Positions 4,962 through 63,834 of a stretch of DNA of 64,000 nucleotides are shown piece by piece. The stretch lies in assembly GCA_041664285.1 (NCBI GenBank), contig JBAYLA010000003.1, positions 4,684-68,683 of the forward strand. Reading direction: 5' to 3'. The notes beneath the pieces were generated by a model, which ran no database searches, had not been told where the DNA came from, and saw only the letters and a program-made list of their open reading frames with translations. The stretch's first letter is position 1. Each line of letters begins with the position of its first letter. The DNA is from Minisyncoccota bacterium. GTDB lineage: Bacteria; Patescibacteriota; Minisyncoccia; Phycocordibacterales; UBA9973. Made by a program: the position numbers and the translations under genes.

Positions 4962-5045
4962 AAACTTTTTTCGGTACGGATTTTTTGAAGCTTAAAAAAT
5001 CCTGAAGTTTTTGCGCCGTCGCGCTCAAAACCCCTTCAAAAGTTT
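4962..5045. repeat. copy A of a ~90-110 bp intergenic repeat element (palindromic core GGATTTTTTGAAGCTTAAAAAATCC; ends AAACTTTT...AAAAGTTT)
   Basis: Near-identical to reverse complement of 45831-45912 and to 63727-63819; overlaps stop codon of sigma gene. Confidence 0.6.
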
Positions 5046-5619
5046 ATTTATAATTTTCCAACATCCTTCGCATTTCTATAATAGCTCTACGGTGAATACT
5101 TTTAACAGTATTTAGTGGTTTGTTTAAAATACGCCCTATTTCTTCAAAAGTCATTTCTTCTTGATAATGGAGAATTAAAACTTCTTGGTAACCTGGACGA
5201 AGTTTCGCTAGTATTTTATTTAAAAAAATGCTATCTTCCAATTTTTGCAGAGCTTCTTCTGGTAACAAGTTTTCATCTGGTATCTTTTCAGCTAAAGAAT
5301 CTATATCTTCATCATCTTCGTTTTTTATATCAGAAAATAATAAGCTCTTCTTTTTTCTTAAAAAATCGGTCACAGCATTTCTGGCAATAATAAAAATCCA
5401 AGTTTTAAAGCTTGCTTTTCGTAGATCAAAACGCGCAATATTTTTCCAAGCTTTTATAAAAATTTCTTGAACTAGGTCAGATGCCTCATTTTTGTTGGTG
5501 AGGCGCGCAGTAAAATTATAAAGTGGTGTTGTATAGCGAGTGATTAAAACTTTAAACGCTTCTTCGTCACCATTTTTATACAAAACAATGATTTCTTCAT
5601 CTGATTCATTTGATAGCAT
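5044..5619 (-). CDS. RNA polymerase ECF-type sigma-70 family factor
   Basis: Region 2 (LVQEIFIKAWKNIARFD...FKTWIFIIARNA) and region 4 HTH (MTFEEIGRILNKPLNTVKSIHRRAI). Confidence 0.9.
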   Translation of the reverse strand: MLSNESDEEIIVLYKNGDEEAFKVLITRYTTPLYNFTARLTNKNEASDLVQEIFIKAWKNIARFDLRKASFKTWIFIIARNAVTDFLRKKKSLLFSDIKNEDDEDIDSLAEKIPDENLLPEEALQKLEDSIFLNKILAKLRPGYQEVLILHYQEEMTFEEIGRILNKPLNTVKSIHRRAIIEMRRMLENYK

Positions 5620-5628
5620 TTTCTAAAT

Positions 5629-5681
5629 ATACCCCCACCCCTATTTAAAATCAAAGAATATAAAAATAGGTGTGGGGGTAT
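5629..5681. repeat. GC-rich palindromic hairpin element, CCCCCAC-core family (ATACCCCCACCCCTATTT / AAATAGGTGTGGGGGTAT, 18-nt loop)
   Basis: Inverted repeat seen directly; right arm plus tail GTGTGGGGGTATAACATA identical to copy at 33747-33773; lies upstream of ECF sigma start. Confidence 0.6.
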
Positions 5682-5693
5682 AACATAAAAAAA

Positions 5694-5719
5694 CTCCGAC
5701 CAGAGGTTGGAGTTTTTTT
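5694..5719. terminator. bidirectional rho-independent terminator (CTCCGACC-AGA-GGTTGGAG flanked by A6/T7)
   Basis: 8-bp stem with flanking T-run on + strand and A-run (T-run on - strand); 10 nt downstream of surface-protein gene 3' end. Confidence 0.6.
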
Positions 5720-5729
5720 ATGTTGCTTC

Positions 5730-8078
5730 TTATTGCACTGTAGTGGTTGTAGTTTTCTTACCAGATGGAAGATCAGAAATAACTGTAGTTTTTTTACGGA
5801 AAGACTGATCAAAAATGTATCTAGCTAAAAATGCAAGGATGAGGATCAAGATAAGCAATAGAAGCCATCCGAATAGATTTGTTGGAAGAAAGCCAGCTCC
5901 AAATACGTTTGCTCCAAGTGGTAAGATAGTTGTTTCATCTTTTGTTGCACTCCAGACTTGGGCAGAAACATTAGCATTGACTGATTGAGGTTGTCCAGCA
6001 GGGTCTGTATAACTTAAAGTTGCAGGGAAGTTCAAATTTGTTCCTTCAGCAATATTGTCTCGGACTCGAGTTTTGATGGTAACAGTTCCTTGACCATTGG
6101 CCTTCAGAGTTCCTAAAGTAAAGATTAAAGTATTTCCAGATCTATTTGGGTTATTTGGATTTGAAGAAATGTAATCTACTTCATAGGGAAGATCTACCCT
6201 TAGGGTAAGATTAGAAATTGCTCCTGTGCCTATATTTTGATAGCTGACGGTGTAGTTAATTTCATCTCCAGGACGTGGTCTAGTGTTGTCTATCGTCGGA
6301 ACGATTGGTTGGTTGCGATCAACAGAAGAGGTAATAAGGACAAGTGAAGTCGGAATAGGTTTTGGATTAACGATTGTTTGATTACGAACGGTTATTGTTT
6401 CTGAATCTACAGCAGTCCCGAAATTATTACTACAGGTAAGGGTAAAAGTTCTACTGCCTGTTAATGATCCAGTGTAGAAACTTCCTGGACCAATGCTTTT
6501 TGTTCCTGCCCATCCAACAGATCCTCCTGATGCATTACAATAAGTCGCATTGGTAGTAATCCAACGAAGAGTAGCAGAACCGTTGTAGGCTACATTTGTC
6601 TGATCGGAATAAAGCACTACTGTTGGACGATTGTTAACAACAATATTATATCTGCAAGGGAGTACTCCGCCGTAATTTATGGCACTTGTATCTCGGCAAG
6701 TTTGAATAATGTATGTACAAGGCAGTACACCTCCGTAATTATTAGCATTTATATCTTGGCAAGTTTGAATGTAGTTATTATATCTGCATGGCAATACTCC
6801 ACCATAATTTATAGCACTTGTATCTCGGCAAGTTTGAATGTATGTACAAGGTAATGTTCCTCCATAATTGTTGGCACTTGTGTCTTGGCAAGTCTGTTGT
6901 TGATATTGGTTTACATAAACAGTGGCTGCAGCGCTTGCTTGCTGTCCATTTGTGCCATAACAAGTGATTGTATAATTATTTGTATACGTTGGATAGACAG
7001 AAGAAGATCCGGAAGTTGCACTGCCTCCGTTCCATGAACCAGAACAATAAGATGCATTAGTAGAATTCCAAGTCAAAATTGAACTATTGCCATTCTGAAT
7101 AGAAGAAGGATTGGCATAAAGAGTGACGGTTGGAGTTTGGGTTGTTTGATTTACAGAAACAGTAGCTGAAGCACTGGCTTGCTGTCCGGTACTATTCACA
7201 CAAGTAACACTGTAAGTGGTAGTGACGTTTGGATTAACTATTCCTGATCCACTTGTAGCGGTACTGGAAGTCCAATAAGAAGAACAAGAAGTTGCGTTTG
7301 CAGAATTCCAGACTAAGGTTGAATTACCTCCATATTGAATACTAGATGGATTGGCATAAAGAGTGACGGTAGGAGTTTGCACAAAACATGCTTCATTTGT
7401 ATATGACTGAGTAGAAGATCCAGAACAATAAGCTCCACCGTTACTTGGACTTGGATTGGTGCAGGTACGAGTTTGAGTGCCTGAATATCCACATTGAGTA
7501 CTCTTAGCACTCCAGTCGCTCCAGCCACCGTTTACAGGCACTGAACATGGGGGATTTGTATATGATTGACTAGAAGGTCCAGAACAATAAGCTCCACCGT
7601 TAGCAGGAGTTGGATTGGTACAAGTACGAGTTTGAGTGCCTGAATATCCACATTGAGTACATTTAGCACTCCAATCACTCCATCCTCCGTTTACGGGAGT
7701 TGGGGCAGGGGTACAGGAAGGAGTAGTGAAATTCAAAGTATCACCAATAGCCTTGCCATATCTATTTGAAGCCATTGCTCGATAAGAATATAAACTATTT
7801 TCAGAAAGATTGTTTATTGTTGCTGAAAAAAATTGATCAGAAGAAAAAGTTTGACTTGGAGTGCTGTAGATAGTTGAATTACCTGGCCCCCAATCAAACC
7901 ATACGGTAGTAGGTGAGCCATGAGTTACAAAATCACCCTCTATTGTGGCACTATGGCAACTTAAAGCTATAGGCCCTGCCAAAGCAATTTTAGTAGGAAT
8001 TAAAGTAGAGGCAAAAAGACCAAACAGAGCAATAGCGCTTATTGTTAAAAATTTTGTTTTAAATGTTGTATTTTTCAT
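5730..8078 (-). CDS. large cell-surface protein: signal peptide, FN3-like N-domain, 2 thrombospondin type-1-like repeats, 2 Ig-like ~78-aa repeats, 4 tandem ~23-aa Cys repeats, DUF11-like domain, C-terminal TM anchor
   Basis: WSDWSAK[CS]TQCGYSGTQTRTCTNP...C x2 (TSP1 W-S-x-W-S / C-S-x-T-C-G pattern); QTC[QR]DTSA[IN]NYGG[TV]LPC[RT]Y x4; C-terminal LLLLILILILAFLA hydrophobic anchor. Confidence 0.85.
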   Translation of the reverse strand: MKNTTFKTKFLTISAIALFGLFASTLIPTKIALAGPIALSCHSATIEGDFVTHGSPTTVWFDWGPGNSTIYSTPSQTFSSDQFFSATINNLSENSLYSYRAMASNRYGKAIGDTLNFTTPSCTPAPTPVNGGWSDWSAKCTQCGYSGTQTRTCTNPTPANGGAYCSGPSSQSYTNPPCSVPVNGGWSDWSAKSTQCGYSGTQTRTCTNPSPSNGGAYCSGSSTQSYTNEACFVQTPTVTLYANPSSIQYGGNSTLVWNSANATSCSSYWTSSTATSGSGIVNPNVTTTYSVTCVNSTGQQASASATVSVNQTTQTPTVTLYANPSSIQNGNSSILTWNSTNASYCSGSWNGGSATSGSSSVYPTYTNNYTITCYGTNGQQASAAATVYVNQYQQQTCQDTSANNYGGTLPCTYIQTCRDTSAINYGGVLPCRYNNYIQTCQDINANNYGGVLPCTYIIQTCRDTSAINYGGVLPCRYNIVVNNRPTVVLYSDQTNVAYNGSATLRWITTNATYCNASGGSVGWAGTKSIGPGSFYTGSLTGSRTFTLTCSNNFGTAVDSETITVRNQTIVNPKPIPTSLVLITSSVDRNQPIVPTIDNTRPRPGDEINYTVSYQNIGTGAISNLTLRVDLPYEVDYISSNPNNPNRSGNTLIFTLGTLKANGQGTVTIKTRVRDNIAEGTNLNFPATLSYTDPAGQPQSVNANVSAQVWSATKDETTILPLGANVFGAGFLPTNLFGWLLLLILILILAFLARYIFDQSFRKKTTVISDLPSGKKTTTTTVQ
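6645..6905. repeat. four tandem ~66-69 bp coding repeats inside surface-protein gene
   Basis: DNA tandem repeats encoding QTC[QR]D...LPC[RT]Y units; coding, not CRISPR. Confidence 0.6.
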
Positions 8079-12040: not shown

Positions 12041-14149
12041 TTAAATATTTCCAACAATAGGAATAAAAAAGTCTACTTCTGTGCCCTTACCTTCTTCGCT
12101 TTTCAAACTAATCGTGCCATTATGTTTTTCTATAATATTCTTAACTAAAAATAATCCCAATCCAGATCCTTCCGTTTCCAGCTTAATCGCATTAGCTGCT
12201 CTAAAAAACTTAGAAAACAACTTTGGTTGATCAGTGTCTGGGATACCCACTCCCTGATCTTTAATTTTAACATGCAAACTCTGCTTGTCAATTTCAGCAA
12301 GAATTTGAATTTTTCCGTATTCGGGAGTGTAATTTATGGCATTACTTAATAAATTTTGCATAACCATGACCATTCTTTCTTTATCTAAAGATATTTTTGG
12401 TAGTCCGGTGGGGATTTCAACATTTAACTCTTGATGATTTTTTGCCACCAAACTATCGATATTACTAATCGCTATATCTAAAACTTCTTTAAAATCAGAA
12501 ATTTCAAAATTAAATCCGAATCTGCCTTCTTCAATACGGGAAACATTTAATAAATCATTAACTAATCTAATTACTCTCTCATTGCTTATATATCCTTTAT
12601 TTAATAATTCTTGCTGTTCCGCGTTTAATTTTCCGGCATCACCTTCTAAAACCATCTTAATTCCCCACTTAATAGCTGACAGAGGGGTTCTTAGTTGATG
12701 GGCAGCTATGGAAATAAATTCTGACTTGATTTTATCAATTCCTTTTTCGCGAGTGGTGTCATAAAATATTTTCATCACGCCAATCTGCTCGTTATTAATA
12801 TCTAATACTTTAGCTGTAATAACTTTATAGGTAGATTCTCGTTGATTTTCTTTTATAGTAATTTCTTCATTTATAAAAATTTGTTCCTTGGTATTTTCCT
12901 TAATTTCCTTAATCTCATAATATTTTTTAATAACTGATTTAAAATTGGAAATGCTAAATTTATTGTCTGTAGCTATTTGTTTATCTAAATCGGCGTTACT
13001 TAAACCAAAAACCCTAGAAGCAGCCGGGTTAATTATATTGATTTTATAATGTTTATCTAAAACAATGATTGGGTCAGTAAAATTAGCAATAATAGCCATG
13101 GTTTTATTTTTTTCCTTTTCCATTTCTTCGCGAGCCTTGGTGTTGTCTTCTAAAATATTAAGTAAAGCTTTTTTTGATTCATCTAACTCTTTTATTTTAT
13201 TTTGTAGCTCTTCAGTTTTTTTACTTACTTTTTTTTCTAAATTTAAATTTAACTCTTCTAATTCCTTGGCTAACTTTTTAGTTTTTTCTTCTTTTATAAT
13301 TTCTTGATTAGCTGATTTAATTAAAAGATAGCCGATTATTATATAAAGTAAAAATATAATTGAACTAATTATTCGTGCCTGTCCGCCTTGAGTTAAAAAT
13401 ATTTGAATAAATAAAACTAAGCCGATTAACATCGTTAGTAGTTCTGTCAAAACCAACTTAATTTCAAATAAATTATTTTTTAAAATAGCATATGCTGTGA
13501 AAATTACTAAAAAAATAGATAAATAGGGGGTTAATTCATTAGAAATAGGGTTAACGGTGCGATCAAACACCGGCCAAATTCCGCTAAAAATTAAAGGGCC
13601 AATAGTTGATAATAATACTCCCCAAATAAAATATTTTATTTGCCATTTTTTAAAGCCAGATTCTTTATAATATGCTCTAACTAAATAATAAAGTCCCAAA
13701 CAAGAAATTAAAACTACGAAAGGTTTACCTAATAAAATATTTAAAGTTCCGGTGGTTTCAGAGTTAAGGTATGGATAATCCGGACTAACGGCAGTCATAA
13801 AATATGGTGTAGCTATAGCCATATAACTCATGAGTATTCCGGTTACGTTTAAAAAAATAATTTTTAACCTTATATACTTAACGTGATTAGTAAAATAATA
13901 AACAAAAATCAGATAATAAGCGCTAAGCATAAAGGCTCCTACCCAATGGGCTCTAGACCAAAATAATTTATTGCTGTTAGGGAAATATACAGCCGCCCAA
14001 CTAAAACACAATGAAGCATAAAAGAAAAAACACCAACCTAAATGAAACGTAGCTTTGTTTTTGCCTCCTCGCCATACTATATAAGCCGCTAGAATATTCA
14101 AAAGGGCGAGAATAAACATTATAATAGCTTTGATTTTTTCAATATCCAT
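12041..14149 (-). CDS. sensor histidine kinase, polytopic N-terminal domain + coiled coil + PAS + HisKA + HATPase_c
   Basis: ~8 TM helices; H-box SIAAHQLRTPL; N, G1, G2 boxes (NLLSNAINYT, DQGVGIP, GSGLGL). Confidence 0.9.
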   Translation of the reverse strand: MDIEKIKAIIMFILALLNILAAYIVWRGGKNKATFHLGWCFFFYASLCFSWAAVYFPNSNKLFWSRAHWVGAFMLSAYYLIFVYYFTNHVKYIRLKIIFLNVTGILMSYMAIATPYFMTAVSPDYPYLNSETTGTLNILLGKPFVVLISCLGLYYLVRAYYKESGFKKWQIKYFIWGVLLSTIGPLIFSGIWPVFDRTVNPISNELTPYLSIFLVIFTAYAILKNNLFEIKLVLTELLTMLIGLVLFIQIFLTQGGQARIISSIIFLLYIIIGYLLIKSANQEIIKEEKTKKLAKELEELNLNLEKKVSKKTEELQNKIKELDESKKALLNILEDNTKAREEMEKEKNKTMAIIANFTDPIIVLDKHYKINIINPAASRVFGLSNADLDKQIATDNKFSISNFKSVIKKYYEIKEIKENTKEQIFINEEITIKENQRESTYKVITAKVLDINNEQIGVMKIFYDTTREKGIDKIKSEFISIAAHQLRTPLSAIKWGIKMVLEGDAGKLNAEQQELLNKGYISNERVIRLVNDLLNVSRIEEGRFGFNFEISDFKEVLDIAISNIDSLVAKNHQELNVEIPTGLPKISLDKERMVMVMQNLLSNAINYTPEYGKIQILAEIDKQSLHVKIKDQGVGIPDTDQPKLFSKFFRAANAIKLETEGSGLGLFLVKNIIEKHNGTISLKSEEGKGTEVDFFIPIVGNI
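12044..12790. repeat. ~750 bp direct repeat (3' end of HK gene), ~85-90% identical to 15001-15745
   Basis: Near-identical DNA and protein (HisKA+HATPase) between the two kinase genes. Confidence 0.6.
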
Positions 14150-14997: not shown

Positions 14998-16560
14998 CTA
15001 AGTTTTATTAATTGGTAAAGTAAAGCTTACTTCTGTGCCTTTACCTTCTTCGCTTTTCAAACTAATCGTGCCATTATGTTTTTCTATAATATTCTTAACT
15101 AAAAATAATCCCAATCCAGATCCCTCTGTTTTCATCTTAATCGCATTGGATGCTCTAAAAAACTTAGAAAACATTTTAGGTTGATCTTCTTTAGGAATAC
15201 CTACTCCTTGATCTTTAATTTTGACATTAAGATACTGCTTATCAATTTCAATAATTATTTGAATTTTGCCATATTCTGGAGTGTATTTTATAGCATTACT
15301 TAATAAATTCTGCATAACCATGACCATTCTTTCTTTATCTAAAGATATTTTTGGTAGTCCGGTGGGGATTTCAACATTTAACTCTTGATGATTTTGGGTC
15401 ACTAGACTATCAACGTTGCTAACAGCTACATTTAAAATTTCCTGAAAATCAGTTTTCTCAAAATTAAATCCAAATCTGCCTTCTTCAATACGGGAAACAT
15501 TTAATAAATCATTAACTAACAGGATAATTCTTTCATTGCTTTGATACCCTTTATTGAGTAGTTCTTGCTGTTCGGCATTTAATTTGCCCATATCGCCATC
15601 CAATATCATTTTTATTATCCACTTAATAGCCGAGAGAGGTGTTCTTAATTGATGAGCGGCGATAGAAATGAATTCAGACTTCATTTTATCAATTGCTTTT
15701 TCACGTGTTGTGTCGTAAAAGATCTTCATTAATCCGAGATAATTTAGATTTTTATCCAAAACTTTAGAAGTAACAACTTTATAAACCCTTTCTTCGTTGT
15801 TATACGTAACAATAGCTTCTTCCAGTTTGGTGCCATCCGATTCCTCAATCAATTTTTCAACCGAGAATTTATTATGAATAATGTTGGCAAAATTATTCAA
15901 ACTAAAGTTATTGCTATCTAATATTTCAATACCCAGATCATTATCACTGATGTTTAAAATTTCTTTGGCTGAGGAATTAAATAGTGCTAGCTTGTGGTAA
16001 TTATTTAAAAAAATAATCGGGGTTGAAAAACTTGATACTAAAGCCATGGTCTTCTCTTTTTCTGTTTCAGCTTTTTTCTTTTCTTCGTTGACATCCTCCA
16101 GCATATTCAGCAAAGCTTTCTGAGATTTTTGTAGCTTTCCTTCACTTTCCTTAAAACTTGTAAGATCAAAAAAACTTATAAAAAAACCAATAATTTCTCC
16201 TTGTTGATTTTTTCGCAGTAAAGTAGAAACACCGACATAAATCTGATTTGTGTCTTTAGTTTTAAAAATAACCTCTAGAGAAGACAATGACCCTTTTTCG
16301 ATTGTTGTTTTGGTTATTTGTTCAACATCTGAATTGCTGAGAAGTTTTTTTAATGTCTCGCCAACAAGTTCTTCTGTTCCATATCCAGAAATTTTTTCTA
16401 TGGATGGATTTGTTTCTAAAATAATGCCCGTCGGACTAACCATGCATATTGGTAGAGGTAAAAAAGAAAATAAATCACGCGCGTAGCTTTCTAGTAATGT
16501 CAAATCATCCAGCATAATGGCAACTTTATCTTTTTCTGAAGTGAGGTTTTTTATTTCCAT
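14998..16560 (-). CDS. cytoplasmic sensor histidine kinase (PAS - coiled coil - PAS - HisKA - HATPase_c), no TM
   Basis: H-box SIAAHQLRTPL, HATPase motifs; C-terminal ~245 aa ~88% identical to 12041-14149 product. Confidence 0.9.
   Translation of the reverse strand: MEIKNLTSEKDKVAIMLDDLTLLESYARDLFSFLPLPICMVSPTGIILETNPSIEKISGYGTEELVGETLKKLLSNSDVEQITKTTIEKGSLSSLEVIFKTKDTNQIYVGVSTLLRKNQQGEIIGFFISFFDLTSFKESEGKLQKSQKALLNMLEDVNEEKKKAETEKEKTMALVSSFSTPIIFLNNYHKLALFNSSAKEILNISDNDLGIEILDSNNFSLNNFANIIHNKFSVEKLIEESDGTKLEEAIVTYNNEERVYKVVTSKVLDKNLNYLGLMKIFYDTTREKAIDKMKSEFISIAAHQLRTPLSAIKWIIKMILDGDMGKLNAEQQELLNKGYQSNERIILLVNDLLNVSRIEEGRFGFNFEKTDFQEILNVAVSNVDSLVTQNHQELNVEIPTGLPKISLDKERMVMVMQNLLSNAIKYTPEYGKIQIIIEIDKQYLNVKIKDQGVGIPKEDQPKMFSKFFRASNAIKMKTEGSGLGLFLVKNIIEKHNGTISLKSEEGKGTEVSFTLPINKT
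15001..15745. repeat. second copy of ~750 bp HK 3'-end repeat
   Basis: see 12044-12790. Confidence 0.6.
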
Positions 16561-17183: not shown

Positions 17184-18053
17184 TTAATTTGTTGTATTAA
17201 TTTTAGCGTTTGTTATTTTTTTAATTTCTTCTTTTAATTCTACCATTTTCAATTCACGATCAACAGAAAGTTCTTGAAATCTTTTTAGGTCTTTCATTTT
17301 ATTTTCTAAGTCCTCAGTTCTTTTTTGTACTTGATTGTCTAAATTATTAGCTATATCTTGTAATTCTTTTGTTCTGGCGAGAACTCTTTCTTCTAGTACA
17401 GCTTTGGATTTTTCTAATTCGACTTTTGTTTTTTCTAACTCCCCGGTTCTTTTTCTAAGAATGTCGGTAAGACCACTGGTTGCAAGGCCGGACAAAATAA
17501 ACGTTACAAAAACAAAAGAAAGAGTGGCAACAACATATTTGGGATCTAGATAGAGATTTTCCCTGAATTGAGCAAAGGGAATATAGGGAATTATCTGAAA
17601 GTATTCCAAACAGGTCAATGCTCCGAACCACAAAAAAGCAACCAGGCTTACCAAAGTTCCTTTTATTTTATCTAAAACAATATTGCAATAAATAATAGTA
17701 AAAAGATAAAAAATAACTCCTATCCATACGATGCCACCATTAGCATAGATAATAATTGTTAAAAAAAATAATTCAAATATAGTAGAATAGACAAGATATA
17801 AATTGCTGATTCCTGAAACAGTTTCCATTTTCTTGACTAGGGTTTTAAAAATAAGAGCACTTATAATCCAAAAAAAGATAATTAGAACAGTAAGCCAAGT
17901 GTATTGAGAATGGGGGAAAAAATCTAGTGACCAAATAAGCAAAACGCCCAAAAAAAATGAGATAAGCGTTACAAGTCTTAGCTTTAATGTATATGCAGTT
18001 TTATCAAGAATGTCCCTTAACTCTGGGGTTTCGTCTAAAACTTTAATTGGCAT
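17184..18053 (-). CDS. 6-TM membrane protein with C-terminal coiled coil (paralog of 14152-14964)
   Basis: C-terminal ...RFQELSVDRELKMVELKEEI mirrors paralog. Confidence 0.6.
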   Translation of the reverse strand: MPIKVLDETPELRDILDKTAYTLKLRLVTLISFFLGVLLIWSLDFFPHSQYTWLTVLIIFFWIISALIFKTLVKKMETVSGISNLYLVYSTIFELFFLTIIIYANGGIVWIGVIFYLFTIIYCNIVLDKIKGTLVSLVAFLWFGALTCLEYFQIIPYIPFAQFRENLYLDPKYVVATLSFVFVTFILSGLATSGLTDILRKRTGELEKTKVELEKSKAVLEERVLARTKELQDIANNLDNQVQKRTEDLENKMKDLKRFQELSVDRELKMVELKEEIKKITNAKINTTN

Positions 18054-18129
18054 AAAATTTCTTGATGAATTATTTTTATACTTCTATTTTAGCATATTTA
18101 AATAGGAATATATATTGAAAATTAATAAG

Positions 18130-18738
18130 CTACCATTTAATTAAAAATTGATGGTACTCATCTCCTCGGTGAACGCATTTTATCTCCTGACAATCTATTA
18201 TTGTCTTAGTGTCAGAAGCCAACTTTACTATATTTGAAAAATAACCACTAAGATGTAAGCAATGTATTGGGTGAAAATTAAAATTTTTAATGTCTACAAT
18301 TATATATTTTTTTTCCTCATTTATTTCTTCAACAACTAAATCACCAATCGTGTAATATTTTCTCCACATCTCAGGTGCCTTTTGGGCCAAAGAATTCATA
18401 GAGCCCATATAATATTGGAAAAATAATTTAATAATATAAGAAAGCTTAGAGCCTAAAATGCCAATTTCTTTCATTTTTTCATCACTAAAATTAAAAGTTT
18501 TCTTTATAACAAGTAATCCTATTATTTCTTGCCATATTGGGTAAAATTCCCACTTATTTAATTCTTTCTGTCCTCTTGTAACACCAAGACGGGCTACTGC
18601 TTCTTCAAACTTTTTTAACCCTTCTTTACCTTTTTCTTTAATAATAAAATCACTCTCGTTTATAAGAGCTATGCCTCTTACTTCACCCTTTTTGTTCATC
18701 AATTGACTTATTTCTTCTTGCAAAATTATTTCTTCCAT
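18130..18738 (-). CDS. ~200-aa cytoplasmic protein, paralog of 16551-17162
   Basis: same conserved Cys/His-containing motifs. Confidence 0.5.
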   Translation of the reverse strand: MEEIILQEEISQLMNKKGEVRGIALINESDFIIKEKGKEGLKKFEEAVARLGVTRGQKELNKWEFYPIWQEIIGLLVIKKTFNFSDEKMKEIGILGSKLSYIIKLFFQYYMGSMNSLAQKAPEMWRKYYTIGDLVVEEINEEKKYIIVDIKNFNFHPIHCLHLSGYFSNIVKLASDTKTIIDCQEIKCVHRGDEYHQFLIKW

Positions 18739-18811
18739 ATAATTTAAAAATTATTCTTTATATTTCTATTTTAACATATTTTAATAGGAATATATGGAGT
18801 TGCTTTCAATG

Positions 18812-18896
18812 CGGAGGCGGTGAGATTCGAACTCACGGTGCCTTGCGGCACTCCTGTTTTCAAGACAGGTGCACTAAACCACTATGCGACGCCTCC
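18812..18896 (-). tRNA. tRNA-Ser (anticodon TGA), long variable arm
   Basis: Acceptor GGAGGCG/CGCCTCC, anticodon stem CCTGT/ACAGG loop CTTGAAA, variable arm AGTGCCGCAAGGCACC, T-arm GTGAG-TTCGAATC-CTCAC. Confidence 0.85.
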
Positions 18897-18944
18897 GTTT
18901 ATTTAATTTTTACCGAGCTTAGTTAATCCAGAGACCTCATTGTA

Positions 18945-18966
18945 CTAAATACTATGCGACGCCTCC
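18945..18966. repeat. 22-nt direct repeat of tRNA-Ser 5' end (CTAAA..ACTATGCGACGCCTCC), 70 bp from the tRNA
   Basis: 18875-18896 vs 18945-18966, 20/22 identical. Confidence 0.5.
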
Positions 18967-19016
18967 ATACCACAAACCCTACTGTATTTTTGCTTTTTTC
19001 TCAAGTTTTTAAAACT

Positions 19017-19045
19017 AAAATACCCCAGATAATCCGGGGTATTTT
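19017..19045. terminator. rho-independent terminator hairpin AAAATACCCC-agataatcc-GGGGTATTTT
   Basis: 10-bp stem with A/T-rich flanks directly after 19054-19317 gene 3' end. Confidence 0.6.
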
Positions 19046-19053
19046 AGTTTTGT

Positions 19054-19317
19054 TTATTGATTTGATGGCTTTTCTATGGTAATGATTTCTTTGATATCAG
19101 CCCACTTCTTTTTAGCAATATAGAAAATATATATAATTTCTAATATTCCAACAGTGTTTACTACCAATAACACAAGAAACCACACTTTTTGGTTGTTTTT
19201 GCCAGCTATCCACAAAGCACAACCCTTCCAAAACAAAGACCATATTAAAATTGGTAAAATAGCCCAACCCCAACTACTCAAACCATTATACATTAACAAT
19301 GCATTATATTGTTCCAT
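19054..19317 (-). CDS. small membrane protein, unknown function
   Basis: 87 aa, two or three TM helices, Trp-rich. Confidence 0.45.
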   Translation of the reverse strand: MEQYNALLMYNGLSSWGWAILPILIWSLFWKGCALWIAGKNNQKVWFLVLLVVNTVGILEIIYIFYIAKKKWADIKEIITIEKPSNQ

Positions 19318-19364
19318 AATAGGGTATTATACCATAAATAGATTTTTATGTTAATATTCTTCAT

Positions 19365-19814
19365 ATGACTACAGGTAGATTTATGGGGATTGATTATGGA
19401 ACTAAGAGAATAGGAGTAGCAATTTCAGACGAAAACCATACCTTAGCTTTCCCGAAAGAAATTGTTTTAAATGATTTAAATACTTTTAAAAAGATTAATG
19501 ACATAATAAAGAAGGAAAAAGTGGAAGAAATCGTGGTGGGGGAGTCGGTTGATTTTTCAGGTAAATTAAATGTTTTATCAGGTAGGATTGAAGTTTTTAT
19601 TTTAGAACTTAAAGAGAGGTTCAAGTTGCCAGTGCATAAACAAAAAGAGTTTCTGACTTCAGTAGAGGCCCGAAAATCTGGAATTAATAAAAAAAGTTTA
19701 AATTCACCACAGTCACATAGTAAAGTAAAACAAATAAAATCTGGCCGAGTAGATGCATCCGCTGCGGCACTTATATTACAGAGGTATTTAGATCGAAGAA
19801 ATAAACAAAAATGA
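19365..19814 (+). CDS. ruvX: Holliday-junction resolvase-like nuclease RuvX/YqgF (pre-16S rRNA nuclease)
   Basis: N-terminal GIDYGTKRIGVAISD, ...VGES motif; RNase H-like fold family. Confidence 0.85.
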   Translation: MTTGRFMGIDYGTKRIGVAISDENHTLAFPKEIVLNDLNTFKKINDIIKKEKVEEIVVGESVDFSGKLNVLSGRIEVFILELKERFKLPVHKQKEFLTSVEARKSGINKKSLNSPQSHSKVKQIKSGRVDASAAALILQRYLDRRNKQK

Positions 19815-20140
19815 TTAATATAGAAGATTTTAAAAAAATAGATATTGTGGTTGGGGAAATTTTGTCTGTGGAGAAAGTTCCAGAGACAGATAAACTTTTG
19901 AAGCTTTCTGTTAATTTAGCTGAAGCTTTGCCGCGGCAGATAGTTTCTGGAATTTCTTTGTATTTTTCTGATTGTTCAGTTTTAGTGGGAAAGAAATGCA
20001 TGTTTGTAGCAAATTTAGAACCTAGAATGATACGAGGGATTGAAAGTAATGGGATGATCTTGGCTATTTCTACCGAAGATGGAAAGTTTTCACTTTTAGA
20101 ACCGAATGATGATATTCCAGTCGGTACCCATGCAAAGTGA
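19811..20140 (+). CDS. tRNA-binding protein (EMAP/Myf/Trbp111-like OB-fold, CsaA-like)
   Basis: IVVGEILSVEKVPETDKLLKLSVNLAE...; overlaps ruvX stop. Confidence 0.75.
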   Translation: MINIEDFKKIDIVVGEILSVEKVPETDKLLKLSVNLAEALPRQIVSGISLYFSDCSVLVGKKCMFVANLEPRMIRGIESNGMILAISTEDGKFSLLEPNDDIPVGTHAK

Positions 20141-20216
20141 TAGCGATGGAGACTTAAATATCGTATATGGAGTACTATATATCAATAGCACTCGGACATT
20201 AAACAAACTATTTAGC

Positions 20217-20246
20217 TTGTTTATGCTCCTCGTTTATTGATATAAT
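20217..20246 (+). promoter_or_regulatory. candidate sigma-70 promoter TTGTTT-18-TATAAT; -10 ends 7 nt before pilM ATG (leaderless or near-leaderless)
   Basis: hexamers seen in sequence; spacing counted by hand. Confidence 0.35.
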
Positions 20247-20252
20247 ATTACT

Positions 20253-21350
20253 ATGTTTAGTAATTCATTTAATAGAATTCTTTTCAGATTTTTTCCTCTA
20301 CCTAAAATTCTTTCAAAACCATCTTTTGGTTTAGATATTTCAGATGAATCATTAAAATTTGTAGAGCTTATTGCTAATAAAAATGGGATTAGGGTTGGAC
20401 GATATGGAGAGCGAAGTATCCCACTTGGAGTTATTGAATCTGGGAAAATTAAAGATTCAAAGAAAATAGAGGAAATTCTTTCCACTCTAAGAAAAGAAGA
20501 AGGAATAAAATCTGTACGTGTTTCTTTGCCCGAAGAACAAGTGTACCTCTTTCCTTTAAAGTTAGAAAAATCAGGTTTGAAAGATGTTCGAGAAGGAATT
20601 GAGCTTGCCTTGGAAGATCATATACCGATATTAGCCCAAGATACGATTTTTGATTTTGAAATAGTTAATGAGAATACTCAATATTTAGAGGTTCAAGTTA
20701 CAGCTATACCAAAAAATATAATTGAAAATTATTTATTAATTTTTGAACATTCTCAAATATCAGTTAAGTCTTTTGAGCTTGAGGCACAGGCAGCCTTTAG
20801 AGCTGTTATTAAAAAAAATGATATGGAGACTTATATGATTGTAGATTTTGGGAAAAAAAGAACTGGTATTTTTATTGTTTCAAAAGGTATTGTGGTATTT
20901 ACCTTTACTCTTGATTTAGGAGGAGTGATGTTGACTCAGATGATTCAAAAAAACTTCAATATAAGTTTTGAAGAAGCAGAAAAAATGAAAGAAGAATACG
21001 GCCTAGAGCGCAATACTAATAATAAAGAAATATTTGCGGTACTTTTAAATAGTGTTTCTGTTTTACGGGATGAGATAGCCAAACATTTTTTATATTGGCA
21101 TACACATAAAGACGAAGAGGGTAAAAACAATCTACCCATTAGAAAAATAATTTTTTGCGGTGGCGATTCTAATTTAAAAGGATTTCCCGATTACATTTCT
21201 GTCAGTATGAAAAGTCCTGTGGAGATGGCTAATGTTTGGATTAATATATTAAACACAGAAAATTCTGTTCCAGAAATGAGCTTTATGCAGTCACTTTCTT
21301 TTACTACTGCTTTAGGATTAGCCTTAAGAGATTTTGATGGTGATGAATAA
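20253..21350 (+). CDS. pilM: type IV pilus assembly ATPase-fold protein PilM
   Basis: actin-like fold family; FGLDISDESLKFVEL...; followed by PilN/PilO-like genes. Confidence 0.85.
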   Translation: MFSNSFNRILFRFFPLPKILSKPSFGLDISDESLKFVELIANKNGIRVGRYGERSIPLGVIESGKIKDSKKIEEILSTLRKEEGIKSVRVSLPEEQVYLFPLKLEKSGLKDVREGIELALEDHIPILAQDTIFDFEIVNENTQYLEVQVTAIPKNIIENYLLIFEHSQISVKSFELEAQAAFRAVIKKNDMETYMIVDFGKKRTGIFIVSKGIVVFTFTLDLGGVMLTQMIQKNFNISFEEAEKMKEEYGLERNTNNKEIFAVLLNSVSVLRDEIAKHFLYWHTHKDEEGKNNLPIRKIIFCGGDSNLKGFPDYISVSMKSPVEMANVWINILNTENSVPEMSFMQSLSFTTALGLALRDFDGDE

Positions 21351-22932: not shown

Positions 22933-23004
22933 GCCCTTGTAGTTCAATGGATAGAACGAAGCTCTTCTAAGGCTTTGATGTAGGTTCGATTCCTACCAAG
23001 GGCA
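22933..23004 (+). tRNA. tRNA-Arg (anticodon TCT)
   Basis: GCCCTTG acceptor, GTTC-AATGGATA-GAAC D-arm, stem AAGCT/GGCTT loop CTTCTAA, T-arm GTAGG-TTCGATT-CCTAC. Confidence 0.85.
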
Positions 23005-23089
23005 CAAAACTGAAAGTTTTGTGAGTCCGCAGCGCGACGGCGCGAGGAGCGGGTCGCGAAATTTTTCAGCAGAAAAATATTTGCGACCA

Positions 23090-23749
23090 ATGAAAATTAA
23101 TATTCTATATGAAGATTCTAATATTCTAGCCATAGACAAACCATCTGGAATTTTAGTGCATCCAGATAAATGGAGCAAAGAAAAAACAATTCTTGATTTA
23201 TTTATTAAAAAATATCCCAAATTAGAAATAGTGCACCGTTTAGATAAAGATACTTCTGGAGTAATGTTATTGGCTAAAAACAAAAAGACTCACGAATTTC
23301 TCAAAAGCCAATTTCAGAATAGGGATGTAAAGAAAATTTATGTGGCAATAGTATCCGGTTCCGTAAACAATGATCGTGGAGTGATCAATAAGCCAATTGG
23401 GCGAAGCCCAAAAGATTTCCGAAGGCGTCTTGCTGGCAGAGGAGCTAGAGGTGAGATGCGAGAAGCTGTTACCGAATACCGTGTCCTCAAACGTCTAAAA
23501 AATTTTACTTATCTTGAAGTTCGTCCTAAAACTGGCCGAACACATCAGATTCGCGTGCATTTAAAATATTTAAATCATCCGGTAGTTTGTGATTCTCTTT
23601 ATAATCCAGATAACCCATGCCCAAAGGGTTTAAAACGCTTAGCCCTTCATGCAAAATCAATAGAATTTAAAAATTTGAAAGGAGAAATTATTAAAGTTGA
23701 ATCATCTATACCAAAAGAGTTTAAAGAAATGGTAAATCCACACACTTAA
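23090..23749 (+). CDS. pseudouridine synthase, RluA family
   Basis: HRLDKDTSGVMLLAKN catalytic-Asp motif; start moved to ATG 23090 (track ORF begins at GTG 23021 inside GC-rich leader). Confidence 0.85.
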   Translation: MKINILYEDSNILAIDKPSGILVHPDKWSKEKTILDLFIKKYPKLEIVHRLDKDTSGVMLLAKNKKTHEFLKSQFQNRDVKKIYVAIVSGSVNNDRGVINKPIGRSPKDFRRRLAGRGARGEMREAVTEYRVLKRLKNFTYLEVRPKTGRTHQIRVHLKYLNHPVVCDSLYNPDNPCPKGLKRLALHAKSIEFKNLKGEIIKVESSIPKEFKEMVNPHT

Positions 23750-23776: not shown

Positions 23777-23789
23777 GTAAAATAATAAG

Positions 23790-26461: not shown

Positions 26462-26489
26462 ATATAATTCCTGTATTATCTATAATATT

Positions 26490-45197: not shown

Positions 45198-45818
45198 ATG
45201 GACGCAACCAATTCAATCTTTTATATCCTTATCCTTGTTATGTCTATCGTGATTCACGAAATCTCGCATGGTTTTATGGCGGAATATTTCGGTGATGATA
45301 CTGCGCGTAATGCTGGGAGACTAACACTGAATCCTATTTCACACATAGACTTATTCGGCTCAATTCTTTTACCAGCAGTTCTTATTTTAAGTAGCACTGG
45401 TTTTATTTTTGGTTGGGCCAAGCCCGTTCCCTATAATCCAAATAATTTAAGCAATAGAAAATGGGGAACAATTGCTGTTGCGGCAGCTGGTGTTCTGGCG
45501 AACTTTTTTATTGCTATTATTTTTGGAATTATAATACGTTTAACATCTGGTATGACCTTGCAACCTAATTTTTATTTTATAACTTCTGCCATTGTAATTG
45601 TAAATCTGGCTCTAGCTATTTTTAATCTTGTCCCGATTCCACCCCTCGATGGCTCTAAAATACTTTTTTCTTTCTTACCCGAGAGAGCTTTTTCTTTTAT
45701 TCTTGACTACGAACAATACTCTTTAATCCTATTACTTGTTTTTATTGTTTTCTTTTCTGATTATTTATATCCAATTTTAGCTTTTCTTTTTCATTTAATT
45801 ACTGGGCTTGCGCTTTAA
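45198..45818 (+). CDS. site-2-protease-family zinc metalloprotease (peptidase M50)
   Basis: HEISHG HExxH in TM helix, LNPISHIDLFG second metal ligand region; start moved to ATG 45198 to avoid overlap with rpmB start. Confidence 0.75.
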   Translation: MDATNSIFYILILVMSIVIHEISHGFMAEYFGDDTARNAGRLTLNPISHIDLFGSILLPAVLILSSTGFIFGWAKPVPYNPNNLSNRKWGTIAVAAAGVLANFFIAIIFGIIIRLTSGMTLQPNFYFITSAIVIVNLALAIFNLVPIPPLDGSKILFSFLPERAFSFILDYEQYSLILLLVFIVFFSDYLYPILAFLFHLITGLAL

Positions 45819-45926
45819 ATTTTAAAATACAACTTTTGAAGGGGTTTCGAGGCTGACGAGCCGAGAACTTCAGGATTTTTTAAGCTTCAAAAAATCTGTA
45901 CCGAAAAAAGTTGTATTTTAAAATTT
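45817..45926. repeat. copy B (inverted orientation) of the ~90-110 bp repeat element, with 21-bp terminal inverted repeats AAATTTTAAAATACAACTTTT / AAAAGTTGTATTTTAAAATTT
   Basis: reverse complement of 45831-45912 matches 4962-5045; directly upstream of rpsL. Confidence 0.6.
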
Positions 45927-45988
45927 GCATTTTTTGTGTGATTATAGTACATTGTTCACATAGTCCTGTAGGGCTATTTTATTTAGTA

Positions 45989-60219: not shown

Positions 60220-60236
60220 TTTTAAAAACATAAAAC

Positions 60237-61569: not shown

Positions 61570-61752
61570 ATGGAAAGTAATGGTATTGAAAAAAACAAAA
61601 GAAGAGTTGAAATAAGTAATAGAATGAAAGCTATAGAGCAAGAGAGGATAGCTTTAAATGAAATAATAAAACAAAAAGCTGCCGAAGAATTTAGCAAGTT
61701 ACAGCAATTAGATGTTGAATATAAACAACTTGATAAAGAATTAAAAAGCTAA
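61570..61752 (+). CDS. hypothetical small coiled-coil protein (60 aa)
   Basis: ORF only; no SD; low support. Confidence 0.3.
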   Translation: MESNGIEKNKRRVEISNRMKAIEQERIALNEIIKQKAAEEFSKLQQLDVEYKQLDKELKS

Positions 61753-61772
61753 AATTTTAAGTTAAGTTCTAT

Positions 61773-62372
61773 CTAACGCAACTTCTTGTACTCCTCAATC
61801 TCTTTTAGAATATCCTTTGCAACTTTTGGGATAGGCTGATTGCCGTTGATTATTTTTATTTTATTTAAACTCTTAAAATATTTTACAGTTTTACTGACTT
61901 GTTTTTTGTGATAATTAATTCTTTTAGCGATAATTTTTTTTGTATCAAGCACTCTATAAATAGCTTTCATTTTTCCCTTACTTCGTTTTAATGAACGTCT
62001 ATAAACTTCCTTATCGGGTAGGTTAATATAAAAAGCTAAAAAGTCTTCCTTGCGTGAATCCAGCATTTTTTTTAAGAGTTGGGCTTCTGGTTTTAGTCTT
62101 CCCCCTAGAAAAAGTAAGTTCTTGTTTTTAGGTTTATTGTTTATTTCTTTAATTAAAAATTTTTTTATCAAAACAACCGGCAATGGTAGACCTTTTCCTG
62201 TTGTTCTTCTAGCTAAATCACCATTTTTGCTTTTTTCTTTTAAAAGATTACGAGAATACACCCCTGTTTCTACAAATTTTAAAGCATATTTCTTTTTTAG
62301 AATATTAGCTTGGGTTTCTTTGCCGGAGGCTATCATTCCTAGAAGTACTATGTTAAATCCAAGCTTTTTCAT
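61773..62372 (-). CDS. divergent adenylate-kinase-like NMP-kinase family protein (paralog, opposite strand to adk)
   Basis: P-loop LLGMIASGKETQ (cf. GxPGxGKGTQ), GGRLKP in place of GFPRT; rest highly Lys-rich. Confidence 0.5.
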   Translation of the reverse strand: MKKLGFNIVLLGMIASGKETQANILKKKYALKFVETGVYSRNLLKEKSKNGDLARRTTGKGLPLPVVLIKKFLIKEINNKPKNKNLLFLGGRLKPEAQLLKKMLDSRKEDFLAFYINLPDKEVYRRSLKRSKGKMKAIYRVLDTKKIIAKRINYHKKQVSKTVKYFKSLNKIKIINGNQPIPKVAKDILKEIEEYKKLR

Positions 62373-62433
62373 AATAAAGTCATTCTATTACAAAACCCTT
62401 GATTATTCAAGCTAAATTTTGTATTGTTAACTT

Positions 62434-63024
62434 ATGCAAACGCAAACTTTCGTATTTTTTGGAATCATTGGCTCCGGCAAGGGAACTCAGGTTGATTTGT
62501 TGCGAAAATATCTAAAAGACAAGAACATAGCTTCTGATATTTTATATACATCTACAGGTGATGAATTCAGAAAGGTTATTGGGAGTGGTAGTTATACTGG
62601 ACAAATAATAAAAGAAACTCTTGAAAAAGGATTTTTACAGCCTAACTTTATTACCACCAGTTTATTTACCAACATACTGATTTCCGGAATGAAAAATGAC
62701 ACCTGCCTGATCGCTGATGGATATCCACGAACTATTGCGCAGTCAGAAAGTTTTGAAGCAATGATGAAGTTTTATAAAAGAGAAAATATAAAAATTATTT
62801 ACATTGAATTATCCGAGCAAGAAGCGATGAAAAGAAATTTACTACGAGGCAGAACTGATGATACAGAAGAAGGAATTAAGAAAAGATTTGATGAATACAT
62901 AAATAACGTAGTTCCTTCCTTAAATTATTTCAAAGGAAAAGAGAATTATACAATTTTCACGATCAATGGAGAGCAAACGGTAGAAAATGTGCACCAAGAT
63001 ATCATTAAGGCCTTGAATTTTTAA
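62434..63024 (+). CDS. adk: adenylate kinase (short-LID type)
   Basis: GIIGSGKGTQ, STGDEFRK, DGYPRT, RxxD..E. Confidence 0.9.
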   Translation: MQTQTFVFFGIIGSGKGTQVDLLRKYLKDKNIASDILYTSTGDEFRKVIGSGSYTGQIIKETLEKGFLQPNFITTSLFTNILISGMKNDTCLIADGYPRTIAQSESFEAMMKFYKRENIKIIYIELSEQEAMKRNLLRGRTDDTEEGIKKRFDEYINNVVPSLNYFKGKENYTIFTINGEQTVENVHQDIIKALNF

Positions 63025-63025
63025 T

Positions 63026-63706
63026 ATGGAAGAAACAATTGTAATTTCACTTGGAGGTTCGCTCATCATCCCTGATGAACTAGACATCAATTTTTTAAAA
63101 GAATTCAGAACTCTAATCCTTTCTCAAGTTGCAAAAGGTAAAAAGTTTGTGATTATTACTGGAGGAGGAAAAATTAATAGAAAATACAATGAAGCAGCCA
63201 AGGAAATTACTAATCCTTCCCACGAAGATCTAGATTGGATCGGCATAGCGGCTCTTAAATTAAATGCAGAGTTGTTAAGAGTTATATTTGGTGAATATGC
63301 ATACAAAGAAGTGATTTCTAATCTTTCTAATAAATTTCCCTTTGAAAAATCAATTATTATTGGTTCGGCTTATAAACCGGGAAGTAGTTCTGATTTGGAT
63401 GCAGTATTGGCTGCCAAGACAATTGGAGCAAAAAAAATAATTAATCTATCAAATATTGATTATGTTTACGATTCTGATCCTAAAAAAAATCCAGATGCTA
63501 AAAAAATTGAAAATATATCTTGGGTAGATTATCGAACTCTAATTCCTACTGACTGGACTCCCAGACTTAATTCGCCACTTGATCCTATTGCTTCAAAGAT
63601 GGCAGAAGAGGCAGGCTTAGAAGTGATGATTATGAATGGCAAACCAATTGACAATCTGGCTAAATGCTTAAATGGAGAGAAATTTCAGGGAACTATTATT
63701 TCATAG
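63026..63706 (+). CDS. amino-acid-kinase-family protein, putative archaeal-type UMP kinase (PyrH-like)
   Basis: IVISLGGSLI... and ITGGG motifs; size 226 aa. Confidence 0.6.
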   Translation: MEETIVISLGGSLIIPDELDINFLKEFRTLILSQVAKGKKFVIITGGGKINRKYNEAAKEITNPSHEDLDWIGIAALKLNAELLRVIFGEYAYKEVISNLSNKFPFEKSIIIGSAYKPGSSSDLDAVLAAKTIGAKKIINLSNIDYVYDSDPKKNPDAKKIENISWVDYRTLIPTDWTPRLNSPLDPIASKMAEEAGLEVMIMNGKPIDNLAKCLNGEKFQGTIIS

Positions 63707-63710
63707 CAGC

Positions 63711-63834
63711 AAAACTTTTAAAAATCAAATTTTTTTCGGCACAGAATTTTCAAGAAACATTCAGCCTTAAAAATCTTGGAGTTCAGAGCTCGACAGCCTC
63801 GAAACCCCTGCAAAAGTTTATTTTAAAAAGTTTT
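63711..63834. repeat. copy C of the ~90-110 bp repeat element (AAAACTTTT...AAAAGTTTT ends)
   Basis: aligns with 4962-5045 along its full length (TTTTTTCGG[CT]ACAGA...AAAAATC[CT]TG.AGTT...CTCGAAACCCCT.CAAAAGTTT). Confidence 0.6.

Follow-up and report, generated by a model that had tools for sequence, protein, structure and literature searches.

A palindromic repeat in three intergenic spacers

We analyzed a 64,000-nt stretch of DNA from a Minisyncoccota bacterium (hereafter, the window; assembly GCA_041664285.1, contig JBAYLA010000003.1, positions 4,684 to 68,683), in which three intergenic spacers hold copies of one palindromic repeat of ~110–125 nt. The window has a G+C content of ~33%, and its genes share ~65–90% amino-acid identity with metagenome-assembled genomes (MAGs) of Candidatus Nomurabacteria. 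Copy A stands after an extracytoplasmic function (ECF) sigma factor gene, copy B between an M50 peptidase gene and rpsL, and copy C between a pyrH-like kinase gene and map. An earlier reading made without database searches (hereafter, the sequence-only reading) had put the copies in this gene context, which proved correct; the label 'anti-sigma' that it gave to a 134-aa open reading frame (ORF) found no Pfam support. Each copy consists of a closing stem (P1) whose two arms enclose a core with two hairpins (P2 and P3).

4946..5060, + strand: copy A, full element (covariance model match, 116.7 bits; sequence)
4946-4969 / 5038-5060: copy A, P1 closing stem
4963-5044: copy A, core
4978-4986 / 4994-5002: copy A, P2
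5008-5010 / 5027-5029: copy A, P3 lower stem
5013-5016 / 5021-5024: copy A, P3 upper stem, GCGC / GCGC, with loop CGTC at 5017-5020
45817..45926, − strand: copy B, full element in the opposite orientation (core 45831-45912; covariance model match, 112.6 bits)
45817-45837 / 45906-45926: copy B, inverted ends, 21 bp perfect (sequence)
63711..63834, + strand: copy C, divergent subfamily with the P2 hairpin lengthened (covariance model match, 78.6 bits)
63728-63818: copy C, core, with arms at 63711-63727 and 63819-63834

The three copies lie where they had been described and align over their whole length. An independent repeat search of the window paired 4946–5053 with 45822–45929 as an inverted pair (108 nt, 81% identity) and 45817–45886 with 63763–63832 (70 nt, 80% identity). 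A 20-nt segment from the 3′ part of the element, TCRAAACCCCTKCAAAAGTT, has exactly three matches in the window, against 0.06 expected from shuffled sequences, of which 0 of 100 reached three. The inverted ends reported by the sequence-only reading are present, including the 21-bp perfect ends of copy B, but they are longer than it had noted: copy A extends from 4946 to 5060, with a closing stem of ~23 bp. The 4-bp stem that was said to differ between copies and yet stay paired does so, reading GCGC/GCGC in A, GGCT/AGCC in B and a weaker AGCT/AGCC in C. A pairing of GAAG with CTTC, implied by the alignment in that reading, was not supported: it shows no compensatory changes, and two of the four pairs contain 21 and 30 broken cells.

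Relative to shuffled sequence, copies A and B fold with z-scores of −4.4 to −7.4 across both strands when RNA parameters are used (copy A, −7.2 and −7.4) and of −5.0 to −7.7 when DNA parameters are used (copy A, −7.7 and −7.0); the RNA fold of copy C is poor (z −1.0 and −2.6). The subfamily features of copy C are common to L017, L037 and L127 (labels of this form denote loci in the analyzed DNA), and its site is orthologous to those of copies in L007, L026, L033, L055, L117, L119, L123, L127 and L133.

Distribution of the repeat family

A scan of one genome per species with an exact pattern matched 37 stretches, 35 of which are full elements, in 21 species-level MAG assemblies labeled Nomurabacteria, Paceibacterota, Minisyncoccia or (probably mislabeled) Saccharibacteria; the other two are chance matches. 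In a metagenome scan the 20-mer was present in 96 stretches, and the family spans ~90 metagenome contigs. When a covariance model built from 36 copies was applied to the fetched DNA at E ≤ 1e-12, it returned 115 copies, 112 of them distinct, a lower bound for the size of the family. The search for further copies that the sequence-only reading had proposed was therefore successful in relatives and also in the window's own genome, which carries six copies in 78 kb: three lie outside the window, one 2.9 kb to its left and two 0.6 and 6.9 kb to its right, the nearer of these between map and a gene for a 922-aa protein. Chance similarity or a local duplication, which has nothing in its favor beyond an A+T-rich background, is refuted by the three matches where 0.06 were expected, by over 110 distinct copies spread across more than 20 species, and by the significant covariation described below, and we assign it next to no probability.

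The core had no match in viral contigs or in phage or plasmid collections. With Rfam 15 at gathering thresholds, only tRNAs passed across the whole window, and at E ≤ 10 the best matches to copies A and B were plant microRNA (miRNA) hairpins that scored 31 and 21 bits, where the thresholds are at least 83. In the literature searched, neither the sequence of the family nor any miniature inverted-repeat transposable element (MITE) or palindromic repeat is described from the Candidate Phyla Radiation (CPR). The family is restricted to the Nomurabacteria/Paceibacteria-type clade of the CPR. To the extent that Rfam, the collections of sequences and the literature searched can tell, it is new; interspersed intergenic palindromic repeats as a kind are known. 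The gene order and sequences of L033 (JAMPXW010000001, labeled Burkholderiales) and of several 'Saccharibacteria' third-party annotation (TPA) MAGs resemble those of Nomurabacteria loci, and the taxon labels or binning of these assemblies are probably wrong.

The core covaries as a three-way junction

The core comprises 82 nt from AAC to GTT (AACTTTTTYCGGTACGGATTTTTTGAAGCTTAAAAAATCCTGAAGTTCTCGGCTCGTCAGCCTCGAAACCCCTTCAAAAGTT). Random pairs of copies are on average ~91% identical over it, and the variation is mostly confined to stems and compensated there. As a single strand, the core folds into a three-way junction of a short stem, P1b (GG/CC), the A/U-rich hairpin P2, and the hairpin P3 with loop CGTC, which carries a conserved tandem mismatch, TC/TC on one strand and GA/GA on its complement. 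Exchanges in P2 (GGATTTTTT/AAAAAATCC) are between G-C and A-U, U-A and A-U, and U-A and C-G. The lower stem of P3 (TTC/GAA) has a C-G pair in 85 copies and U-A in 19, and its upper stem exists in at least ten Watson-Crick versions (GGCT/AGCC, GCGC/GCGC, GCCC/GGGC, GCTC/GAGC, GGCC/GGCC, GCAC/GTGC, GCCT/AGGC and others). Invariant residues are GGTAC, TGAA and AAACCCCT, unpaired in the junction, together with the C, G and C of the CGNC loop and the tandem TC/TC mismatch.

Covariation, which the sequence-only reading had suggested testing statistically, is highly significant on the 112 distinct sequences. Across these, 96.1% of cells are paired; both sides change at 13 pairs, compared with 7.7 ± 1.2 in shuffles (0 of 500 reach 13); and compensated cells number 148, compared with 29.4 in shuffles and at most 18 in slid controls. 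Mutual information picked out the predicted pairs only and gave no tertiary covariation beyond the helices, and RNAalifold independently recovered the same helices plus the outer arms. The GG pairs with two of four C's, an arrangement preferred over GAAG/CTTC, and RNAalifold likewise gives GGU/ACC; in two copies (L005 2478 and L135 16138), the GG/CC stem is continuous with P1.

With DNA parameters, both strands fold equally well. Folded as RNA, the complementary strand is the more stable one in 81 of 82 cores (−20.8 vs −16.9 kcal/mol), and the corresponding alifold energies are −23.3 and −10.2. Mismatches in core stems are A-C rather than G-T at a ratio of about 20 to 5. The sequence-only reading had presented the changing but paired hairpin as what a conserved RNA structure would show. 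That hairpin is real, but covariation alone does not show RNA, and the orientation of copies varies and flips, as detailed below; significant covariation in a consensus fold, the generic criterion for structured RNA, characterizes this family and does not separate RNA from single-stranded DNA.

Closing stems vary in sequence and remain paired

Beyond AAC/GTT the closing stem continues for 8–28 (mean 16) Watson-Crick pairs of locus-specific sequence, in which the 5′ arm is rich in A and the 3′ arm rich in T. A one-base bulge is present in many copies, in the 5′ arm of 32 and in the 3′ arm of 9. Arms differ between copies of one genome, and conservation falls outward from AAC/GTT, with the inner ~10 nt semi-conserved by subfamily. 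At orthologous sites the arms are recognizably alike and differ by compensatory changes, as they do upstream of rpsL (ATTTTAAAATACAAC vs ATTTTTGAAATACAGC) and in a second orthologous example (TGTTGGAACAT vs TGTCGGAACAT). Identity at orthologous sites is 0.91–0.97 for cores, 0.71–0.78 for arms and 0.67–0.87 for coding flanks; we conclude from the difference between cores and arms that the core is constrained in sequence and that the arms are constrained only to pair. Mismatches in the arms have no strand bias (11 G-T, 10 A-C).

A comparison of 13-mers from arms among loci was too noisy in A+T-rich DNA for interpretation. The arms were also considered as guides against viruses, an idea that was dropped: they are not recognizable as such, and three G+C-containing arms, read as guides or spacers, had no exact match in viral contigs.

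Placement, inversion, gain and loss

The element occupies very short spacers right after stop codons, with gaps of ~10–40 nt between core and ORF. Contexts among 101 copies include 38 between co-directional genes with the shown strand as sense, 16 in which it is antisense, 18 between convergent genes and 10 between divergent genes. Approximately 25% of copies have a T-run of at least five at the base of the hairpin (8 of the 38 co-directional sense copies, 7 of 18 convergent and 2 of 10 divergent). The copy in L070 has a canonical terminator on one side and a tRNA promoter on the other, and copy C, only ~12 nt from the ATG of map, must on account of that distance be transcribed and read through.

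Two sites, pyrH-like→map and map→922-aa gene, are each kept in up to ~10 species. Inversion of the core between retained arms is seen at 6 of 20 orthologous sites, for example at the site upstream of rpsL, where copy B and L054/L124 have the same arms, in L006/L049/L073 compared with L020/L114, and in L025 compared with L128. In the last case the arm bulge keeps its side, which places the breakpoints within the innermost inverted repeats, AAACTTTT/AAAAGTTT. Orthologous sites are empty in L034, L080, L128, L044, L032, L064 and L033; at several sites where related species lack the element, genes overlap or are separated by 8-nt spacers without a palindrome. Decayed copies occur in L036 (a stem with a 12-nt loop) and L123 (a 5′ deletion), and subfamilies are common to different genomes rather than confined within one. 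Canonical intrinsic terminators stand in place of the element upstream of the 922-aa gene in L007 and L112 and at a convergent site in L033, L064 and L117.

Several individual loci bear on these patterns or on annotation. At L117 11500–11590, arms like those at the repeat site of other species are present, but around a perfect 16-bp G+C-rich hairpin. L025 7190–7340 holds a strongly diverged element at a site where others have the repeat, in which P2-like and GGCT-TGTC-AGCC hairpins remain. The public call for map (Peptidase_M24, 318 aa; L135 8951–9907, corresponding to window 63664 onward) begins within the upstream kinase gene and crosses copy C; the true start is likely the ATG at window 63847, and the repeat misleads gene callers here, as the map ORF is extended through copy C.

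A sister family and other features of the window

A second family (hereafter, family 2; core GCACGGATATTTTTTTGCTAAAAAATTCCTCGTGCTCGCGCCGTCGCGCTCCCAAGTC) differs in its junction and has P2-like and GCGC-CGTC-GCGC hairpins as in the main family. Three of its four copies are enclosed by perfect 21–24-bp arms that are mutually unrelated in sequence, which suggests that one arm may have been copied from the other. The window contains an armless relative of family 2 and an ordinary terminator that is useful for comparison; both are listed here after the four family-2 copies, which lie in other loci:

L022 1212-1302: family-2 copy
L070 1163-1253: family-2 copy
L098 9317-9407: family-2 copy
L010 1609-1702: family-2 copy
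23003..23090, − strand: armless family-2 relative (family-2 core pattern match; weak covariance model match, 19.6 bits; z −4.6 and −3.8)
5681..5725, no strand assigned: canonical bidirectional intrinsic terminator, not a copy (terminator scan: 20 pairs, then a T-rich tail)

The armless relative has a P3-like hairpin, GCGC-CGTC-GCGC (GCGC-GACG-GCGC on the other strand), and an A/T-rich P2-like hairpin, preceded by a small hairpin, CACAAAAC-TGA-AAGTTTTGTG, at 23003–23023. It follows the gene for tRNA-Arg(tct) (22933–23005) and is just upstream of the start, at 23090, of a gene for pseudouridine synthase. The terminator at 5681–5725, AACATAAAAAAACTCCGACC-AGA-GGTTGGAGTTTTTTTATGTT, stands between the gene for a 782-aa CLIPPER-domain protein and the sigma gene; with its A-rich/T-rich outer stem and G+C-rich tip, it is an ordinary version of the hairpin beneath the repeat.

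Elsewhere in the window, gene strand and GC skew switch at ~18000–20500; the minus strand carries the genes to the left and the plus strand those to the right, and the cumulative GC skew has its minimum at ~18–20 kb. No dnaA or dnaN is nearby, the neighbors being genes for RuvX, a tRNA-binding protein and PilM, and the switch could be a replication origin or a mere point of operon divergence. The ORF at 5730–8078, which encodes the 782-aa CLIPPER-domain protein, has internal tandem repeats at 6644–7696 with periods of ~63, 159 and 240 nt. Paralogous segments were found at 12056–12355 and 15010–15309 (86% over 300 nt, in neighboring sensor-kinase genes) and at 23782–23917 and 26482–26617 (76%, in genes for 567- and 582-aa proteins that flank tRNA genes); relatives of the latter two genes recur near the repeat in L018, L023 and L028. 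Two genes of the adenylate kinase family, at 61773–62372 (−) and 62434–63024 (+), lie back to back at the end of the ribosomal protein/secY cluster.

Interpretation

We tentatively propose, with a confidence that falls somewhat short of even, that the family is a non-autonomous palindromic DNA repeat of the REPIN/ERIC/MITE kind, the core of which is recognized in hairpin form by a putative trans-acting protein. The family behaves as a non-autonomous repeat does: it is present or absent at orthologous sites, its copies decay, its subfamilies are trans-specific, and it survives strictly between genes. That the stems must pair indicates that the element folds in a single strand. Its orientation is free and changeable, its arms have no preference for G-U, and DNA folds equally well on both strands, which makes DNA the more likely form in which the fold is read; a structured RNA accounts for the data no better than a single-stranded DNA hairpin does. 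A putative recombinase, transposase or nuclease would recognize the hairpin or cruciform form of the core, and this requirement would prevent change in the junction sequence and loss of pairing in the stems. Copies would have spread in ancestors of the clade and then been inherited mostly vertically. Species differ in the sites that are occupied, and copies can decay by internal deletion and undergo inversion of the core between its innermost inverted repeats. Co-transcription at some sites follows from the survival of copies only in very short gene-end spacers; copies that are co-transcribed add a long hairpin to the mRNA and may secondarily aid 3′-end formation or stability.

A number of observations weigh against this proposal. 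The check for target-site duplications that had been suggested by the sequence-only reading gave no signal, the longest flanking direct repeats averaging 2.8 nt compared with 3.0 in a mismatched-flank control (duplications of 3 bp or less would escape detection). Conservation is lowest in the outermost inverted ends, contrary to what a terminal inverted repeat (TIR) bound by a transposase would show, and arms are never common to two non-orthologous copies, so that no recent transposition is visible. Among ~130 loci, neither an autonomous parent nor a recurrent neighboring enzyme gene was found, nor was a protein partner, and the exact pattern matches just ~1–3 times per genome in the species scan. 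The excess of A-C over G-T mismatches in core stems and the better RNA fold of the complementary strand in nearly every core hint at one preferred folded strand. The persistence of 91–97% core identity while flanking genes drop to ~70% fits host-level selection, and hence function, better than a dormant selfish element. The main weakness is that no recent movement is seen and that the core is preserved in place, as a functional element would be, which keeps a cis-acting RNA role alive.

In that alternative, which we consider unlikely but worth serious attention, the element is an immobile structured RNA under host selection, the long stem and junction of which would punctuate operons by forming or terminating transcript 3′ ends, by protecting against exonucleases, or by offering RNase III or some other nuclease a place to process the transcript. 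It would account for a core that at orthologous sites is much better conserved than the genes around it, for an invariant junction and tandem mismatch set among covarying stems, and for the retention of pyrH-like→map and map→922-aa gene sites in so many species. The filling of spacers directly 3′ of stop codons, the canonical terminators that hold the same positions in other species (L007 and L112; L033, L064 and L117) and the unavoidable transcription at pyrH-like→map point the same way. An RNA with a sequence-specific function would be expected to have a fixed orientation, yet 16 of 54 tandem contexts are antisense and cores flip at orthologous sites; 10 copies lie between divergent genes, and the L070 copy is flanked by a canonical terminator and a tRNA promoter. 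The T-runs are present in only about a quarter of copies and in the same share of divergent contexts, the arms have no G-U excess, and the element is dispensable in close relatives, where genes overlap or spacers are 8 nt long. Less probable still is an independently transcribed small RNA (sRNA) or self-cleaving ribozyme on the complementary strand, to which we give little credence. The better RNA folding of that strand (81 of 82 cores, with the alifold difference given above) would be expected of it, the TC/TC mismatch becomes a tandem sheared G-A motif there, and an invariant three-way junction with covarying stems is the pattern of ribozymes and aptamers. However, the element has no conserved promoter or terminator of its own, its flanks differ at every locus, the hammerhead reading fails (see below), no Rfam family matches even at E ≤ 10, and the better folding of the G+T-rich strand may be a by-product of base composition.

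A different explanation, improbable in our judgment and standing between the two just described, confines mobility to the core: an 82-nt module would insert in either direction into the tips of pre-existing gene-end hairpins, or be flipped there by a dedicated recombinase. Inherited, locus-specific arms around cores of differing orientation or subfamily (copy C vs L007/L026/L033, L016 vs L017, L025 vs L128) are what this would produce, and at map→922-aa gene the identity of orthologous cores does not track that of the flanks (rho 0.06). Also in its favor, the arms of L069 resemble the outer stem of the canonical terminator of L033 at the same site, similar arms in L117 enclose a G+C-rich hairpin of another kind, L036 has inner arms of the L022a type around a 9-nt loop, and the perfect 21–24-bp arms of family 2 are of unrelated sequence. 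Yet empty sites (pyrH-like→map, the L006 locus and the L022a locus) are without any hairpin, arms and core having been gained or lost together; the inner ~10 nt of the arms are semi-conserved by subfamily; the bulge is mostly on the 5′ arm (32 vs 9) and so mostly moves with the core; core identity tracks flank identity at pyrH-like→map (rho 0.57); and no clean case of the same arms around a small loop is seen in a close relative. In a more specific form, to which we attach the same low probability, the core would be a structure-targeting or invertible DNA module that presents a T- or Y-shaped junction to a putative CPR enzyme and inserts or flips at gene-end hairpin tips, with arms maintained, or made, by hairpin-templated copying. 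Under such a module reading, these tips would be 'safe sites', the genome having hardly any DNA to spare, and if flipping were active within populations, the core could switch neighboring genes.

The genomes of CPR bacteria (Patescibacteria) are regarded as having shed their repeats and as containing little mobile DNA, and their non-coding elements are almost unstudied. More than 100 copies, a fold supported by covariation and a core conserved beyond essential genes together imply a conserved binding partner, either an enzyme or an RNA- or DNA-binding protein. With its conserved center, its stem that is free in sequence but paired, and its flips, the family offers a tractable model for the maintenance of palindromes in tiny genomes. 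The repeat is also a clade-specific marker, and the covariance model could become a new family entry.

Comparison with known systems

The sequence-only reading called the copies MITE-like, which fits in part: they are small, non-coding and multi-copy with inverted ends, but conserved TIRs and target-site duplications were not found. An apparent target-site repeat at one locus (ATTTTG / TATTGT) did not generalize. Ends of the element around a coding region, as in a related insertion sequence (IS), were found in 0 of ~130 loci, and one copy is truncated (L003). Like the MITEs Correia/NEMIS, RUP, BOX and bcr1, the family is small, non-coding, multi-copy, intergenic and variably present, with inverted ends and the ability to form long hairpins in transcripts; unlike in them, no target-site duplication or, at these loci, related IS was detected, the outer ends are not conserved, and the interior is strongly conserved, with covarying stems.

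ERIC, or IRU, is an imperfect palindrome of ~120 bp that is intergenic, mostly in transcribed spacers, occurs in either orientation and has no known transposase (e.g., Wilson and Sharp 2006). Palindrome size, placement, a low to moderate copy number, unusual conservation across species, and presence or absence at orthologous sites are shared with our family. The two have no sequence relationship, ERIC is conserved over its full length whereas here only the center is conserved within a locus-specific outer stem, and the host clade is the CPR. In REPINs, which are associated with the RAYT transposase, two REPs with a GTAG motif stand in inverted orientation around a loop of variable sequence, and their copies number in the tens to hundreds (Bertels and Rainey). 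In common with REPINs, the elements described here are non-autonomous hairpin repeats with long vertical inheritance, placement at gene ends and a possible influence on termination or stability, and recognition of a single-stranded hairpin would be a further likeness; the layout is opposite, as REPIN arms are conserved and the loop is variable. Consistent with this difference, the conserved 20–40-nt arms with a 5′ GTAG-type motif that mark a REP were not found, since the arms are variable and the center is conserved.

Bidirectional intrinsic terminators share the A-rich 5′ arm, the T-rich 3′ arm, the location at gene ends and the same positions in relatives, but not the 82-nt junction tip, the T-tract in just ~25% of copies, or the copies between divergent genes or upstream of co-transcribed genes. 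The element is not simply a canonical terminator: its hairpin is stable and at some sites its position is that of a canonical terminator, but T-tracts are too rare, the L070 copy comes after a terminator, and copy C must be read through into map. No convincing internal sigma-70 promoter was seen by eye on either strand. A hammerhead has the conserved core CUGANGA ... GAAA around three helices and a NUH cleavage site. The corresponding reading here (CUGAAG ... CGAAAC with GUA) was set aside as well: A9 and stem II are missing after CUGAAG, 10 of 33 copies have A, matched by a compensating partner, where G12 would be expected, and no Rfam hammerhead matched at E ≤ 10. Retron, TIGR array and box C/D readings were dropped on architecture and context.

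Two systems of folded DNA resemble the family in form. The inverted terminal repeats (ITRs) of the parvovirus adeno-associated virus (AAV) are T-shaped hairpin ends of linear viral genomes that exist as flip and flop isomers and are bound as folded DNA by an HUH protein. The long stem, the two small tip palindromes and the asymmetric tip found in both orientations between identical arms are alike; the repeat sites are internal to the chromosome, with no sequence similarity and no known Rep gene, and the analogy is one of form only. Integron attC sites are likewise folded single-strand sites with AAC...GTT, an extrahelical base, and structure kept better than sequence, but their boxes are at the outer ends, their center is variable and they lie in cassette arrays, whereas our elements have syntenic housekeeping neighbors. 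An identity with attC was rejected on the grounds that AAC/GTT is internal to a longer stem, the center is conserved and the neighbors are housekeeping genes. Compared with REP, MITE and attC elements, the layout of this family is reversed: a conserved three-way-junction tip is carried on a variable, always-paired stem, and the tip flips between inherited arms.

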